Shown here: positions 47,345 to 55,600 of the stretch, piece by piece
Layout of the letters: every line of letters starts with the position of its first letter
How positions within the stretch are numbered: the stretch's first letter is position 1
Assembly (NCBI GenBank): GCA_013115125.1
Contig: JABANN010000060.1
Coordinates: 1-64,000 of the forward strand
Reading direction: 5' to 3'
DNA length: 64,000 bases
Source of the DNA: Perkinsus olseni
Taxonomy: Eukaryota
Notes under the pieces: generated by a model
Told to the model about the DNA's origin: nothing
The model's database searches: none
What the model saw: the letters and a program-made list of their open reading frames with translations, nothing else
Program-made: the position numbers and the translations under genes

Positions 47345-49537
47345 TCACCGGCGTCCGAAGCGTCCGTGAGGATATCGGCCGCCTTCCGACAGCACCGAAG
47401 CCCGCACTTCACAGCAGGACCTTGGAGAGTCATCGCCCCCTCTGGAGCTCGGGGACTCGAGTTTTCGCCGTGCCAACGCACCCATCCTCATCGGAGAAGC
47501 GAGGATGCCGCCAGCGCTCATCGGGGATGCTCCATGGTGAATCGGGTTGATGTTGGGCCCGCGATTCTCGACTTCGACAGACCGCGACACGCCATGAGGG
47601 GGTCGACGACCATCCAGGACGGGACGAGCCCAGGCAGGTGGCAGCCGGCAGTGGCCTTTGTGTGGTGGGGAGAAGTCCGCTGGTGGTCTTGAGGGGCATT
47701 CCCGATGCTGGACGGCCCTTCTGTCCGGCCCCGGTGGTACCAGAACCCCTTCCACGACGCAGGGGTACCGACCTAGCGCTTGGTTACCGCGAGGGCGTGC
47801 CGCGTTGTTCGGGACACCACGGGCCAATGGAGGCTCTGCCTGGCGAGGGGATGCCGAAGCACCGACTCTCCTCCGCTTCCCCACGTCCGATCGAGGGGGG
47901 CTGTGCGGCCCTACGCCACCTATTGGTTGAGGAGAGCAATGACCGATAACACCGGACGGCCTTGGATGACGCCCTGGGGAATCATCCAGGCATTGAGCTG
48001 GAAGACGTCGGTCATCCAGGACGGGCGAACGCGGTTGAAATTCGCCCCTCTGCGGCCTCGACGGAGAGCCTTTGTTAGCCAGGACAGGATCCACGTACTT
48101 GGGCACAGGTGATGACGGAACGCCCCTTGGCCTCTGACTGGCTGGACTGTACCGCCGCGGATGCTGCTGTTGCCCGACAGGTGACAGGTTACGCTTGGGC
48201 ACCATGGGGAGCCGCTGCTGCCTCAGAGGAGAGGCCTTCGCGCAGGGCCGACCCCATGCGCGAGGACTGTCGTCCGGAGCACTCTAAAAACGACAGTGTT
48301 ACAGCCTTCCTAGACCCTCCAACTCACCAGAGGGTCTCCCTCCTCGACCAGCATCTGCCTTATCTCAGCTTGGACGATGCCTCGGCCGACGATCTCCGCC
48401 GCGGTCGGCCTTTTCATCCAGTCCCGACTAAGACAGTCTCGGAGCAAGTCCCTCAAGCTCGCCGAGTAATGCTCCGGCAACTCGGGCGTCGGCCCCTTGG
48501 TTATCTTGTCCACCAGTGACTTTATGTTGCTCGCATCGAATGGGACTTTAAGACAGCAAAGTTCATACAGGATGCAGCCCAACGCCCATATGTCAGAAGC
48601 CCAGTTGTAGGGCTTCTCTTCGCAGATCTCCGGGCTCAGGTAATACGGCGTCCCTATGGTAGTCTCGGCGAACGCCAACGTCGAGTCAAGTACCTGCGCT
48701 TACCGCGTACCGTGCTGAACGAGCGTCGATAAGAGCACGTCCTAGGCCGAGGAAGCAGCAGCAGGACTCATGCTCAGGACGTTGGGTTTGGCGGGCCGAA
48801 TTCGGAGCTCAGGTCCAACACACGCGCTCGCTGAAACTTCGGCGCTTGCGCAGTCGACTATGCATTAACTCGCTCAGTCTTCGTCTTTGTCTGTCGTCGC
48901 TGCCTCACCTTGGATATGCCGAAGTCGCCCAGTCTTAGCCTGTTAGCCCTGGTCAGGAAGAGATTCTGAGTCTTCAGATCTCGGTGCAGGATATGCTTCT
49001 CGTGCACGTACCTTGCAGAGGCCCTCAGGACGGATCGGAGGCAGCGGACTCAGCATCTCACTTCAGAGCTAGAGCTGCCTGGCTAAACCATCGGACAATC
49101 TGTGACTCGGGAAATCCCACACCAGTGTCGCGCGCCTTCCGTATCCTCGCGGCCAAGTCCCCTAAAACGTCACCATAGGGACGGCGCCGCCGCGAAGCGG
49201 AGAAGTTACCGCCCTCCGCGTAATCCATAATGATACAGAGACCGTTGGCTTCCTCAAAAAACGAGTCGCGGTAACATACCACATAAGGATGCTTCAGAGA
49301 TGACAGTACCTGCCCACGATAATATTTCAAAAAACGATTCAGTCGAAAGATTAGCGCTCGCCCCGCCGATACCACCTTGACCTCATTTCTAGCATCATTC
49401 CGCTGTTTTTTATCCATCCTCTTCACGTCGATTGTTTTCATGATGTACTCTCGGCCGTCCCTCCCACGCACCAGCCAGGCCCTTCCGAAGGACCCCTCAC
49501 CGACCTTCCTAATGCGCGAGTACCCTCGAGAAGCCAT
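47345..49537 (-). CDS. NIMA-related Ser/Thr kinase (NEK family) with Pro/Arg-rich tail, spliced
   Basis: [62 protein letters not shown]. Confidence 0.95.
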
Positions 49538-49686: not shown

Positions 49687-52600
49687 CTAGTCTTGGTCTG
49701 AGGATGCCTTCCTGAAGCCTGTCTTCTCGTAGTGGCCGTGCAAGACCTCCCGACGGATTCTCTCTAGTCGAACGACCGCGTCGTCCACAACGTCATTCGT
49801 CGCGCCGATATCCCTGATACCACACCTTCCCCAAATCCCATGGACCAGCACCTACCGCAGAGACCGGCCAATCTGCTGCATGAAGCAATCAAAGTGATAG
49901 TCCGTGATGGCCAGGACCGAATGCAGCTCCTTGAGATCTCGACCCCGGTATCGAGACGGACCTGCCCAGCCACTACAACCAAGGACGCTCGTCATGGACG
50001 GCTCACCTCCGAGGACCATCGTGATGTAGGCGGACTGGGCCTTCTTGATACTCTTCAGCTTGGACCCCTCGAAGAAAGCGTTGATCCTCTTGTCCCGCTC
50101 CACGCACTCGTATCTACGGTTCAGCATCACCCTTGGCCGATGAGATTCGGAAGTCTCACAGGCGAACGATAAAGGCCTCGATGCCCTCTTGGCCGCCCAA
50201 TTTCTCGAAGAGACGTTCTCTGCCTCCCTTCTCGCCCTCCTGCTTGGCGATCTCCATCCGTACCATGCAGCCCGTGGTGATGTCCGACCTTGTCCTGTTA
50301 ACCACCTGCAGCGTTACCAATACGACAAGGAAAATTTGGAAGAAAATATTCCCGAGAATGAGAGCTGCCTATTTTTTGTGCTGTTGTTTTAGTTTCCGCA
50401 AGCGTAGCTGGCAGCGAAGGCATCGTTCACACCACAAATTGAAAATATTATCTTGTCTCGTTGATTTTACTGATCGGATATTCTCGACACATTTGCTTGG
50501 CGGTGTCCACTGAGACGTCGAAGAAATAGCTCTAGTCTCAGCTGCACGTCCCTCCCATCTGCATGCCACTCAATAGAGTCCCGACCCGACACTTACCAAG
50601 AAGACATCGTCCAAGGTAGTGCTGTCAACGCCGATGTCCTTAGCGGCCTCCACCAGGCTATCACAGAGAGCGTCAAAGTGGTAGTTGGTGATGTTCATAA
50701 AATAATGAGCTGGTTTAAGCAGCTTCGCGTCGTACTGGACCGGACCTCCGAAGGCCCCGCTAAGATACTGATACCTGGCAAGACAAGCTCACCATTCAAA
50801 CTGTTCAATAAGTCGCTACATCTTCATCCTGATTTGCTTCTGCTTGGCCTTCCCCTTCTCTAGGAAGTACCTCACCCTAGAGTCCTCCTTCGCTCGCTCG
50901 TACCTGATCCTACCAATACCAGCCGACGCAGGCAATGGGCGATCCCGACATATTCTCGACGAGGGCCTCCAGGGAAAGATCCCCTCCCAGACGGTCCACC
51001 AGACTCTTGTCATCCTTGCTTTGTATCACTGAAACAAGTCCCTCCTCATGTACCGCGATTTGGGCTTTTACTGGTATGAGCGTCGTCCTCCTTAATACCG
51101 AGTACGCTCGGCCTGATCTGCTCCAGAGAGACGACAACCTCGTCGATGAGTTCCGAGGAAATTCCTGCGAGTCGAACGAAATACGTCAAGAAGGGAATCG
51201 AGTCGCTCACCTGCATCCACCAACGCCTTCTGAAAATTCGATATGAAAGCATCAAAATGATAATCATTAATACCTAAGCTTCCCAAAATCAGACAACGGA
51301 GCGAAGCCCGACATGTTCTCCATTTTTCGGTATGACCTACCCAAGTGCTCATGTATTTGGTACAGCTCTCTCCCTTCATAGGTCTGTGGACCTCCTAGGA
51401 GGCCCACGACGTATTTTCCGATATTCTCTCGGACCCTAGCCAGATGTGGAATCCCGAAGAACGTCTTGATGCGCGCGTCGGCAAGAGATAAGTCCATCAG
51501 TTCACCGTACAACTTCTCGATGCCCTCTGTCTTACCCAACCTACACGATCAATACCATATCAACAGCGTCGCTAGAAGTCGCGAGTGAATTTGAACAGCG
51601 AAGGACCACGTAACCCAGCAAAGACGCTAGCGAGGAATGGATTTCCTCTACCCGGAAAGAGTCGCCACTCACGATAGTACTACCCCATGAAAAGATGCTC
51701 CTTGCCCTCCTCTGTGCGTTGCCGGCCCGTTTCCATCCGAACCGTGCATCCCAGAGTGATGTCAGTGCGCACCGGCTGCAACGTCTTGATCAGCTCTCTG
51801 GCCAGCCCTGAGGGGTAGGGAACTGCGGACCTCCCGGGAAGACTAATCGCCCTCTCACTCCGATCTACTCCCATATCCGTTACCAACACCCCAAGCATGA
51901 TGCCGAGCATCCTATCAAACTGGCGATCGGCGATGTTCATGCCGTAGTGAGCTGGTCTTAGCTCCTTCACATCATATTGGGACGGCCCACCTGCGAGCAG
52001 TAGCGCTCAAAAAAACGTCGCGCGCCACGAAACTCAACTTGCCTGTGAGGAGGCATACATATTGTGTCATTCTCTCTCGTATAGTGGTAATCCGGGCCTT
52101 ATTTTTCTCGAGGAAGCTCCTCAGGCTCGGGTCCTCCAGAGCCTTGTCGTACATCTTACTTATGAACACCGCAATGGACTGCTCTCCACCCAGACGGTCG
52201 AACCTGACGACCACCTTCCCTTCGAAGCTGCATTCTTATTTCCCGCAACGCACAGAGACTTTTTCCTCGACGCCTCCTGAGTCGCTCGGGCGTCGTGCTT
52301 GCGAAGATCCGGATTAACAACATTAGCTCGTTCCGTCTCCAGCAAGACCGCGCCTAGAAAATCCACCGTGCGACAAGGACGTATCTTAGGTCGGCTCTTA
52401 CACTCATCAGTCGTGTCCGGATCCAAACCGCGCTTCAATAGAGCCTTCCGGCATAGTTCGAGGAAGGCATCAAAGTGATAGTCAGCGATTTGTATCATAG
52501 CGTGGATCCTCGGCAAGGGCCGACCAACGTACTCGACCGGTGACCCCAACAGCTGGGCAATGTACTCCCCTGAAATCACCACCGTCGACCGTGCGGATCA

Positions 52601-55600
52601 ACTCGCCGAGGAAGCCGGGAAAGAAGTCTGCGTGTTCAACAGATTTGCACTGTCTACGTAACACAGCTGCGCTCGAACTAGCTTCGCATCATCAACCCAT
52701 TCCCTCGAATACTCCACTTTCTATCTTACTCACTATGAGCCCAATCTACTGTGTGTTCTACAACTACACCTACTGCAACGAGATAGTGAAGACCTCCACC
52801 GAGTTCCAAGAGCTGCCTTTAACGAGTTAACACTATTCAGGAGAGCATCGACAGGAATTCTCAAATACGGCTCCTCACCTTGGCTGGCCTTGATGGAGTC
52901 CAACTTGCTACCAGAAAAGAACAACTTCACTCGAGGGTCCTCCTGGATGAACTTATACAGATCGTCGATAAATGCCTCAATGCCATCATCACCACCAAGT
53001 TGCCCGAAGAGCCCATCCGTGCCTAAAATTCGCGAGCGACGCCTTAGCGGAGCGACGCACTCCGACTCACCAGCGCTCTCGACCTTTTGCATGGCCAGCT
53101 CGTATCGCACAGTGCAGCCCTTGGTGATGTTCGTTCGCGCCTTACCCGCTACTTCAATAAGGTCCTTAGTAGCTTCCTCGTCGAGCTCCAGTACTGCGCA
53201 GGCAGCCTAGGGCACAGGAGAAGATCCCTCGACAGGAGAAGCGGTCGCTGTTGCGCTCAGCGACTTTCAGAGCGACGATGCAACGCTGGCCTCAAAACAT
53301 CGCCGACGAAGGCGTACCCTACGTGATAAGCCACAACCGGCTCTCAGATTGCTATTGTCCGAGGGCGAGCCCCACTGAGGAACAATGCCACTAAAGCAGC
53401 GTCAAGCTAGTCATGAGAAGATTCCTTACACACGGATAAGGTCGACCTCTCTGAGTAGGTCATGGATGAAAGATTCCTTTTATTCCCGAGGAAGGGGTCT
53501 CACCTGCATATTCTCCAGCACAGCGTCGAAATGGAAATCAGTAATATTCATATTAAAATGAAACGGTTGCAGCTGTTCCAAATCATATCTTTGGGGTCCA
53601 CCGCAAAGGCCGATCAACACTTGAGCCTAGGAAGGGAATCTTAGGTTGAAGATGGGATTTTACAAAATCAGCAGCCCTACGATCTTAGTTTTCTGATTCT
53701 CCTGCTTCTCCGGGTCAATCGAGAAGAAATATTTGATCCTCGGATCTTGCTGACATCCGAAGTGCCTGCGTCAAGCTAGGATACCCATCCAAATTATGCC
53801 AATACTACATAGTCTCGACCACCGCTTCAAGATTAAGCTCGCCTCCGAGCCTCTCCAAGACGCTCTTCCCCTTCACAACCTTCTGCTGAGACCCTATACC
53901 CCTCGCTTGGTTCAACACCGACGCCCGGATGGGCTCCAGCAAGAACAATACCTGACCGAACCCACCCCTGTGCAAGACCAACCCTATCGCCATTGGCTCA
54001 CCTCGTCGACCGTGGCGTCGTCGTAGCCTAAACAATAGAGGGCCTTCTCACAATCCATCATAAAACAGTCAAAAGTGAAATCATCAACGCCCATATCTTT
54101 ATGTACGCTGACCAGATCCCGTCCTGAAGTAGTACAGCAGATACGAAATCTCCCAGCACATCCTAAGTTCGGCCCAGCAGGCTTGTTACCCTTATATGCC
54201 TTTTCGCCACCGAAAAGTTCCTCCAGGTAAATCGTCTGACCAGTCTTCACCCTAACACGATCGGTCTGGACGACCGCCACAATCACGATCCTTCTCACTT
54301 CCCAATATTCTTGTCTTTGAAGAAACTCTTCAGTCGGGCATCAGCATTGATAATTTCGTAAAGTCGATCCATGAACTCCGCTATACCCTTCTTCCCTGAA
54401 AGTTGACTTCAGCGACGGAGACAGCCGAGGTCGCTGCTACAACCACCTCAGCCAGTCAGTGAGCGCTCATATCCATCTAACGGACGTGCGCGCCTCGAAT
54501 AATGGTTTCTCTGTTCTATTTATACTATTACCACTACTATGTCGAGAAAAATGAAGATTCTTAACGACACTGCTGAGCCCCGCCGGTGACTACCTTTGAG
54601 TTTCTTAAACATGTATCCATCTCCGCCAGCCTTCACGCTCGTTCTAGCCTTTTCCATCCTCACAGTGCAGCCAGTAGTAACATCTCTCCGAACCTTGCAT
54701 GGACTGATAGACTATTCCTGCGACCTGAGGGCCTTACTTTTCCCAAGGCAACGATGAGGTCTTCCTTGGCGGCGGGATGGACGTTCAACGTCGTGAAGCT
54801 GGCGTCGAAGAGCTCCAGAATCTGCAATGCAAATAAAGCAAAGAAGCGGTAGCTGAGCCGCTACCGCGTCGAAGTGGTAGTCGGTGATGTTCATGTCATA
54901 GTGAACAGGCTTCAGCGCGTCAGCATCATACAACTTGGGACCTCCCGTGAAGCCCGAAAGGAACTACATTCCACTGGAGTGTCATGAGAACTAAGATACT
55001 TTTTCCAACCTGGACCATCTTCTTTTTGATTCTGGCCATCTTTTTCTGATTTTTCTCCAAGTAAGCCCTGAAACGCATGCCAACTCGCCCTAAATTCAGC
55101 GGAGTTCAAAAAGTTTCTCAACTTTTCAATAAAGAGCTGATCAAATACAATAAATCTTGCTTTGCTACTACCTTCCGCCGAAACTACACAGCACAAGCAG
55201 AGTTGAAATCACCGAAAAACGGCATACAAGACGAGCGACAATCGCGTGAATAACACGGGTCGAGAAGGATGAGCAAAAACTCACATCGATGAGCCTTACC
55301 GAGTCCTCGAGTCAGCCACCGCTCTGCTGTACATCAGGTCAACTGCCGTCTCTATGGCCAAATCACCACCGACTCGTTCGTATCTGCCGCGGTGGAATAG
55401 AGGCCCCCGTCGAGTATAACCACTTTACAGGGAGCGCGACTTGTCGTCGTTGGCCATCTTGTTCCTGAAGGCATTCAGACCGAATGCCCCTCCCTGAGCG
55501 TTCTGCTCTGCAGCTTGTTTCACCGAGGACTTGAATCTAGCACGGTTCATGCAGCCTCGTTCCAACCTTTCCGGCGAATCTTACTGTTGGATATCTTCCT

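Follow-up and report, generated by a model that had tools for sequence, protein, structure and literature searches.

The 64,000-nucleotide stretch of Perkinsus olseni contig JABANN010000060.1 analysed here (positions 1 to 64,000, hereafter the window) carries on its minus strand an intron-rich gene, visible in the open reading frame (ORF) listing and in a three-frame reading as short open segments between short GT..AG gaps. We reconstructed this gene by splice-aware dynamic programming of its P. chesapeaki orthologue P0002 against the window, with one junction adjusted, and the spliced alignment yielded a whole coding sequence at 49687..55858 (minus strand, as for all features of the gene given below) of 31 exons and 30 introns, encoding 1179 amino acids (aa) plus stop. 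The encoded protein is a polymeric group-1 (N-type) truncated haemoglobin, in which a 108-residue N-terminal extension is followed by eight group-1 truncated haemoglobin domains (D1 to D8) of two types, A (odd) and B (even), in the order (AB)x4, that is, four copies of an A-B pair. The original prediction had placed an eight-domain globin at 49740-55384, coordinates that bracket the eight domains of the gene.

All truncated-haemoglobin matches of the window fall inside this gene. Exon-sized pieces of it matched the Pfam family Bac_globin (PF01152), with single exons scoring up to 28.3 bits, and the orthologue P0002 (P. chesapeaki FOL47_008915, 1188 aa) matched the same family with 354.7 bits (cut-off 21) in 8 stretches. 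Bac_globin and an overlapping Protoglobin match were the only Pfam matches of P0002, in which reductase domains (flavin, cytochrome b5 or any other) were absent. Using the clean exon P0001 as a query, the closest proteins were all from Perkinsus (P. olseni, P. chesapeaki and P. marinus), namely P0003 (P. olseni FOZ61_000997, 813 aa, 100% identical to the exon), P0002 (82% identical to it) and P0004 (P. marinus PMAR024501, 695 aa).

This P. olseni gene is transcribed. We used the contigs of sequencing run X1, whose RNA type is a guess from its label (“RNA?”), taking exon-exon joints as spliced molecules and counting uncovered or unspliced stretches as evidence neither way. Among the contigs listed, 15 joints removed exactly 15 of the 30 introns of the model (introns 2, 4, 7, 8, 9, 10, 11, 13, 14, 16, 17, 23, 27, 28 and 29), each with CT..AC ends on the plus strand, equivalent to GT..AG on the minus strand. 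Three of the introns confirmed in this way (9, 13 and 16) lie within or right next to the E helices of D2, D3 and D4. The eight domains lie in one reading frame and X1 contigs join exons across several domain borders, although no single listed contig covers the whole gene. Two listed contigs retain introns 18-21 and 24-26, so that these introns, including the GC-AG intron 19, rest on the orthologue alignment and the reading frame only.

The pocket residues of D1 to D8 were assigned by MAFFT and HMM (hidden Markov model) alignment. As an anchor for the numbering, the B10, E7, E10 and E11 columns of the B-type D8 fall on Y25, Q46, Q49 and Q50 of Tetrahymena trHbN (3aq5), and in the A-type fragment P0053 an Ile, an Arg and a Met align to Q46, Q49 and Q50 of 3aq5, with a two-residue insertion just before; the mutants Y25F, Q46E and Q50E of this Tetrahymena protein appear in PDB titles. 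The eight E-helix strings on which the original prediction was based (RIKKKMVQF, NQKTKIAQV, TIRERMTQY and QIRMKMYQY in odd domains; KVKTGQTIY, SIKASQGEY, RVRENIGKY and SIKKAQSAY in even domains) are all present in the spliced protein.

Type A domains occupy the odd positions. D1 (54670..55439) has Y130 at B10, L143 at CD1, I153 at E7, K156 at E10 (codon 55019-55021), M157 at E11, H180 at F8 and I193 at G8. D5 (51749..52264) has the corresponding residues Y665, L678, I688, Arg691 (codon 52071-52073), M692, H715 and M728, and D7 (50270..51011) has Y932, L945, I955, K958 (codon 50822-50824), M959 (codon split by intron 26), H982 and L995. D3 (53117..53870) is an A variant, with His396 at B10, F409 at CD1, Q419 at E7, K422 at E10 (codon 53684-53686), I423 at E11, H446 at F8 and V459 at G8, and X1 confirms its intron 13, which lies inside the E helix. 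On an A scaffold, His B10, Gln E7 and Ile E11 were seen together only in D3 of the present gene and of its orthologue. The basic residue of odd domains, predicted to lie at E10, was thus found there in all four (K156, K422, R691 and K958), in the HMM alignment, whose numbering agrees with the alignments to 3aq5, and the predicted hydrophobic E11 (M, I, M, M) and the Leu at CD1 in three of four (L, F, L, L) were recovered as well.

Type B domains occupy the even positions. D2 (53907..54624) has Y266 at B10, F279 at CD1, V287 at E7, G290 at E10, Q291 at E11, H314 at F8 and F327 at G8; D4 (52310..53020) has Y532, F545, I553, S556, Q557, H580 and F593 at these positions; and D8 (49732..50221) has Y1068, F1081, I1089, A1092, Q1093, H1116 and F1129. 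Introns 9 and 10 in D2 and introns 16 and 17 in D4 are confirmed by X1. D6 (51091..51703) is a B variant with a fully apolar pocket on a B scaffold (Met801 at B10, F814 at CD1, V822 at E7, N825 at E10, Ile826 at E11, H849 at F8 and F862 at G8); an apolar pocket at position 6 was also found in some other members of the family, for example P0010, P0011 and P0017. The even domains accordingly show the small E10 (G290, S556, N825, A1092), the Gln E11 in three of four (Q, Q, I, Q) and the Phe CD1 in all four that had been read from the unspliced letters. For B10, the loss of Tyr in D6 (Met801) was borne out, and the count needed correction, since Tyr is kept in six rather than seven of the eight domains: D3 has His396, the alignment being ungapped from the A-B Gly-Gly motif to B10, and likewise in P. 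chesapeaki.

The proximal His F8 is present in all eight domains. At G8, the B domains of the gene have Phe throughout and its A domains an aliphatic residue throughout. Relative to B, the A domains carry two extra residues between CD1 and E7, just before helix E. In the MAFFT alignment, Gly-Gly motifs are present at the A-B and E-F corners of most domains; D2 and D6 depart from this with only one Gly at the A-B corner, and D4 with Gly-Ser at the E-F corner.

To place the gene in its family, we ran a HMMER scan with P0002, which returned 2681 relatives at E <= 0.001, many of them multidomain among the best 150 of 2681 that were examined. A search for short relatives of one A domain gave 3 matches. 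HMMs built from the A and B domains of the gene and of its orthologue were then applied to the 173 proteins collected, a sample that comprises whatever the protein searches returned. Both types were carried by 36 of the 173 proteins, and neighbouring domains in these 36 formed 95 AB, 68 BA, 0 AA and 3 BB pairs, with 12 further pairs including an untyped domain.

Residues were counted in 64 unique A and 68 unique B domains, leaving out the present gene and its three orthologue models. Among the A domains, E10 is Lys in 45, Arg in 13 and another residue in 6; E11 is Met in 44, Phe in 8, Leu in 7, Ile in 3, Val in 1 and Asn in 1; CD1 is Phe in 56 and Leu in 5; B10 is Tyr in 45 and Phe in 16; and the two-residue insertion in the CD-E region is present in 59. 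Among the B domains, E10 is Gly in 21, Ser in 18, Ala in 18 and Thr in 4 (61 together) and another residue in 7, with one Arg and no Lys, while E11 is Gln in 58, G8 Phe in 57, CD1 Phe in 62 and B10 Tyr in 55 or Phe in 10. F8 is His in all 132 domains of the other family genes, and G8 in the family is Phe in B and aliphatic in most A. Going by these counts, the family marks of A domains are Met E11 and a basic E10. The Leu at CD1, which the original prediction had listed among the features of the odd domains, is on the same counts a peculiarity of the present gene and no family mark of A domains, because CD1 is Phe in 56 of the 64. Type-specific residues persist across proteins 35-55% identical to the query and across the positional classes d1 to d8.

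We then built a FastTree tree of 96 domains. It contains a B clade of 40 domains (support 0.979) and an A clade of 40 A-typed domains plus one untyped, degenerate domain (support 0.76), and sets A and B together apart from conventional repeat truncated haemoglobins. A and B are shown to be two old paralogous clades in strict alternation. Inside each clade, domains group by position (d1, d3, d5 and d7; d2, d4, d6 and d8) across paralogues, from which we infer that the (AB)x4 layout is older than the expansion of the family. Because odd and even domains form two clades and the pattern recurs in other genes, the odd/even pattern is inherited and conserved rather than coincidental.

Outside the family, the proteins collected contain 98 unique domains with both Tyr B10 and Gln E11, of which 31 carry His and 30 carry Lys at E10. 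Relatives of a single domain type are thus shown, as far as the alignments go, often to hold Tyr B10, Gln E11 and Lys or His E10 in one pocket, and the Perkinsus A-B family to divide these features over two domains. The B type retained Tyr B10, Gln E11 and Phe CD1, gained Phe G8 and lost the basic E10. The A type retained Tyr B10 and the basic E10 (Lys or Arg), replaced Gln E11 by Met or another apolar residue, and has Ile E7 and the two extra residues before helix E.

To compare the two kinds of domain junction, we ran AlphaFold2 on an A-B pair (P. olseni D7-D8, residues 907-1179) and on a B-A pair (D6-D7 of the P. chesapeaki orthologue), each with a 19-row alignment. The A-B model had a mean pLDDT (predicted local distance difference test) of 88.7 and a pTM (predicted template modelling score) of 0.84, and in it the H helix of A runs on through the linker as one helix (residues 118-139, block pLDDT 92 and 82). 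The B-A model had a pTM of 0.52 and linker residues 125-134 with pLDDT < 50. In the family, the A-to-B linker is 31-41 residues long (33-34 in 42 of 61) and carries the motif R-x-D-I/V-T-x-G-C/F/Y-T-V-R-x-E-x-A; the B-to-A linker is 26-252 residues long and poorly conserved. A-B is therefore predicted to be a rigid pair with a conserved helical linker, and the B-A junctions to be variable and disordered; since models and linker statistics agree, the repeating structural unit would be A-B with flexible B-A junctions. The view that A and B are chemically distinct and paired, already put forward from the raw sequence, is supported by their separate pocket residues and by the pTM of the A-B model as against that of B-A.

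Both halves of the A-B model are ordinary TrHbN 2-on-2 folds. Foldseek matched the model to 3aq7/3aq5 (target TM-score, template modelling score, 0.90; root-mean-square deviation (rmsd) 1.3), and VIA-align to 1dlw (Z 19.5) and 3aq5 (Z 19.1). The A half fits 1dlw, 3aq5 and 1idr (Z 18.4-19.5, rmsd 1.5-2.2) better than THB4 6bme (Z 13.3) and Synechocystis 2hz2 (Z 12.1), and THB1 4xdi (Z 14.2) was aligned to the B half; 6bme, 2hz2 and 4xdi we take to be endogenously hexacoordinate forms. This comparison of the conformation of the A half is weak evidence on coordination, because the AlphaFold2 model carries no haem.

The reading that we favour, and to which we give an even chance, is that the protein is a polymer of four rigid A-B heterodidomains, in which B is an O2/NO (nitric oxide) site built on Tyr B10 and Gln E11, whereas A supplies a second haem, its pocket being apolar and its E10 cationic. 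B would hold O2 through a Tyr B10/Gln E11 hydrogen-bond network, as in Mycobacterium tuberculosis HbN, and would perform O2/NO chemistry, most likely NO dioxygenation. At the haem site of A, bound ligand would be stabilised less strongly, and E10 would mainly supply a positive charge that anchors a haem propionate or acts as a gate, while Lys-bearing A domains may still ligate iron reversibly. The A-B pair would act as a unit, four of which are repeated per chain. Arg is not a usual haem ligand, and the interchange of Lys and Arg at E10 (in D5 and in 13 of the 64 other A domains) suggests that a positive charge is conserved there rather than an iron ligand. According to excerpts of PMC4720485, Tyr B10 and Gln E11 hydrogen-bond the ligand, basic E10 is a general support of haem binding in truncated haemoglobins, and in clade N apolar residues at E7, E11 and G8 accompany low O2 affinity, which is why A is probably the weaker ligand binder.

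Several points weigh against this reading. The typing HMMs contain the very columns that were tabulated, so that the family counts are partly circular, and these counts are not independent, since P. olseni paralogues or isolate variants make up much of the set of 36 proteins. The two AlphaFold2 jobs differ in both domain pair and species and rest on shallow alignments. D3 and D6 deviate from the consensus of their types. B domains lack a basic E10 (one Arg and no Lys in 68), and haem binding as such therefore does not require one; that 58 of the 64 A domains have kept it could reflect a special role such as iron ligation, which would favour the view of the original prediction. Most characterised Lys-E10 TrHbN (THB1, 2, 4, 10 and 11) are moreover described, in the excerpts of PMC7082302, as Lys-coordinated at least when ferric.

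That earlier view, which we consider unlikely, makes A an endogenously hexacoordinate low-spin haem (His F8 and Lys E10) and an electron carrier re-reducing the ferric haem of the neighbouring O2/NO-reactive B. Its appeal lies in the distribution of Lys E10 (three of four A domains here and 45 of 64 elsewhere, none of 68 in B), in the predicted rigidity of A-B (pTM 0.84), which an intramolecular relay would need, and in the division of labour that would follow if an ancestral pocket with Lys or His E10 and Gln E11 had been split over two domains. The precedent it invoked, Lys E10 as a distal haem ligand in Chlamydomonas THB1, agrees with the excerpts of PMC7082302, in which THB2 and THB4 also take Lys E10 as sixth ligand, and those of PMC11904497 credit coordination by E10 with “facilitating electron transfer steps”. 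The same excerpts of PMC7082302, however, report that THB10 and THB11 have Lys E10 and yet are pentacoordinate when ferrous, that Lys E10 points off the haem in the THB11 crystal, and that there are “no clear determinants” of Lys hexacoordination from sequence. The Arg at E10 in D5 and in 13 other A domains, and the general haem-binding role ascribed to basic E10 in the excerpts of PMC4720485, also speak against a relay, as do the lack of an external electron donor domain in the Pfam results for P0002 and, weakly, the A half of the model, which is nearer to ligand-bound or pentacoordinate TrHbN than to the forms we take to be hexacoordinate. In a stronger version, which is decidedly unlikely, each A-B is a self-contained redox couple, a six-coordinate A (with Lys E10 or, in some units, Met E11 as ligand) passing electrons to a B that turns over O2 and NO; if true, (AB)x4 would be a globin-only multihaem NO dioxygenase without a fused flavin reductase, and such a division of labour would be new for any globin. 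A sixth ligand of A provided by Met E11 instead of Lys E10, giving a cytochrome-like His/Met haem, is the least probable of the readings considered. Of the pocket residues specific to A, Met E11 is the best conserved (44 of 64 elsewhere, three of four here), and a Met placed at E10 of THB1 ligates ferrous iron (excerpts of PMC11904497), but E11 is Phe, Leu, Ile or Val in 19 of the 64 A domains and Ile in D3. In THB11, moreover, the amide of Gln E11 lies 3.9 Å from bound cyanide, beyond iron bonding distance (excerpts of PMC7082302), so that ligation by Met E11 would need a large movement of helix E. Ligation by Met E11 is not known to us from any natural globin.

Two further readings were weighed. 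The chief role of A may be to support B structurally or allosterically, as between the partners of a heterodimeric haemoglobin, its haem and pocket tuning the tunnels of B or providing cooperative ligand binding; A would then neither carry electrons nor serve as an independent site. The strict alternation with zero A-A neighbours, the rigid predicted A-B unit with its conserved linker motif, and the Phe at G8 in B against aliphatic residues in most A, G8 being named in the excerpts of PMC4720485 as lining the long and short ligand tunnels, are all in keeping with such a partner; His F8 in 64 of 64 and Tyr B10 in 45 of 64 A domains nevertheless imply a functional haem pocket under selection, and we regard this explanation, too, as unlikely. 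Alternation might instead be a mere legacy of the duplication of an A-B unit, without present function, given that A and B are clades and that the (AB)x4 order arose by unit duplication. Drift would blur the type-specific residues, however, and these hold across proteins 35-55% identical and across classes d1 to d8, which makes a neutral legacy very unlikely.

Truncated haemoglobins are widespread. Chlamydomonas reinhardtii THB1 (PDB 4xdi, 6cii) shares fold and family with the Perkinsus protein, and the A-domain Lys lies at the same E10 position. By sequence, the best match of THB1 is the B-type D8. The A domains differ from THB1, which we presume to have Gln at both E7 and E11, in their Ile E7, their Met E11, the two extra residues before helix E and, in some cases, an Arg E10. 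In the excerpts of PMC7082302, THB1 is a single-domain haemoglobin, as opposed to the eight domains found here. The best sequence and structure matches are M. tuberculosis HbN (1idr) and Tetrahymena pyriformis trHbN (3aq5). The B domains have Tyr B10, Gln E11, Phe CD1 and an apolar E7 in common with HbN, and differ from HbN and trHbN in their Phe G8, their small E10 and their constant fusion behind an A domain. In HbN the apolar E7 is Leu, and the protein has an NO-dioxygenase role (general background and excerpts of PMC7082302).

Multidomain truncated haemoglobins are already known: THB5 has four truncated-haemoglobin domains in one polypeptide (excerpts of PMC7082302), and other protist proteins have 5-12, for example P0021 from Lacrimia lanifica. 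The other repeat proteins that we typed have a near-identical pocket in each unit (for example Y-F-Q-K-Q), unlike the Perkinsus family with its two diverged types in obligate alternation. A literature search for Perkinsus together with truncated hemoglobin or globin found nothing on these proteins in the titles and abstract openings listed, and on a search of that scope only, an obligately alternating polymer of two types with partitioned E10 and E11 is apparently undescribed. Fusion of a globin to its electron supply is represented by flavohaemoglobin and by the nitrate reductase of raphidophytes, which contains an inserted trHbN domain. If the relay of the original prediction were true, an electron module would be fused to an NO-dioxygenase haem as in flavohaemoglobin, except that the carrier would itself be a globin.

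Nature has here divided the features of a single pocket over two covalently paired domains and kept them apart through many duplications, one domain retaining the ligand-stabilising Gln E11 and the other an E10 whose part may be to coordinate iron or to provide charge. For globin specialists the family is of interest mainly because what E10 and E11 each do could be tested directly on separate A and B domains and on A-B. Perkinsus lives in mollusc haemocytes, and the protein may bear on how this parasite, a serious one of clams and oysters, withstands low oxygen and the NO of its host.

The N-terminal non-globin extension (residues 1-108; 55440..55858) is encoded by exons 1-3 and the start of exon 4 and was delimited by tblastn against P0002. 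It matched no Pfam family above threshold (a weak DUF6244 match scored 17.1 bits against a cut-off of 31.6), and among the best 150 proteins of the HMMER scan with P0002, many family members align from query residue 6-11 onward. The P. olseni models P0160 and P0157, with 14-16 annotated domains, have a copy of the extension between domains 8 and 9; because the extension recurs in mid-protein, these models may be two tandem eight-domain genes merged or fused. In the deposited NCBI model P0003, residues 541-813 equal residues 907-1179 of our gene model; P0003 is partial and its D5 is mis-spliced, skipping about 40 residues of D5 where our model has the GC-AG intron 19 (51991-52042), inferred to lie after the E helix of this domain and before its E-F corner.

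Most introns are 42-54 nt long, and six are of 143-309 nt. Five introns of about 200-310 nt lie at 50303-50595, 52568-52878, 53205-53503, 54394-54593 and 55066-55299. Near 52730-52793, the X1 contigs are very deep and have loose ends, as would be expected if intron 16 contained a repeated element. In D2, a 24-nt GC..AG intron forced by an insertion in P0002 was dropped for the 66-nt GT-AG intron 10 (54124-54189), which is in frame and is spliced in X1 contigs. P. chesapeaki P0002 has nine extra D2 residues exactly there (about 303-311), which may be a partly retained intron in the P. chesapeaki annotation. Immediately downstream of the globin gene, at 48310-49537 on the minus strand, lies a protein kinase gene, NEK-like by eye, two ORF pieces of which match Pfam Pkinase (E 7e-20 and 9e-11).

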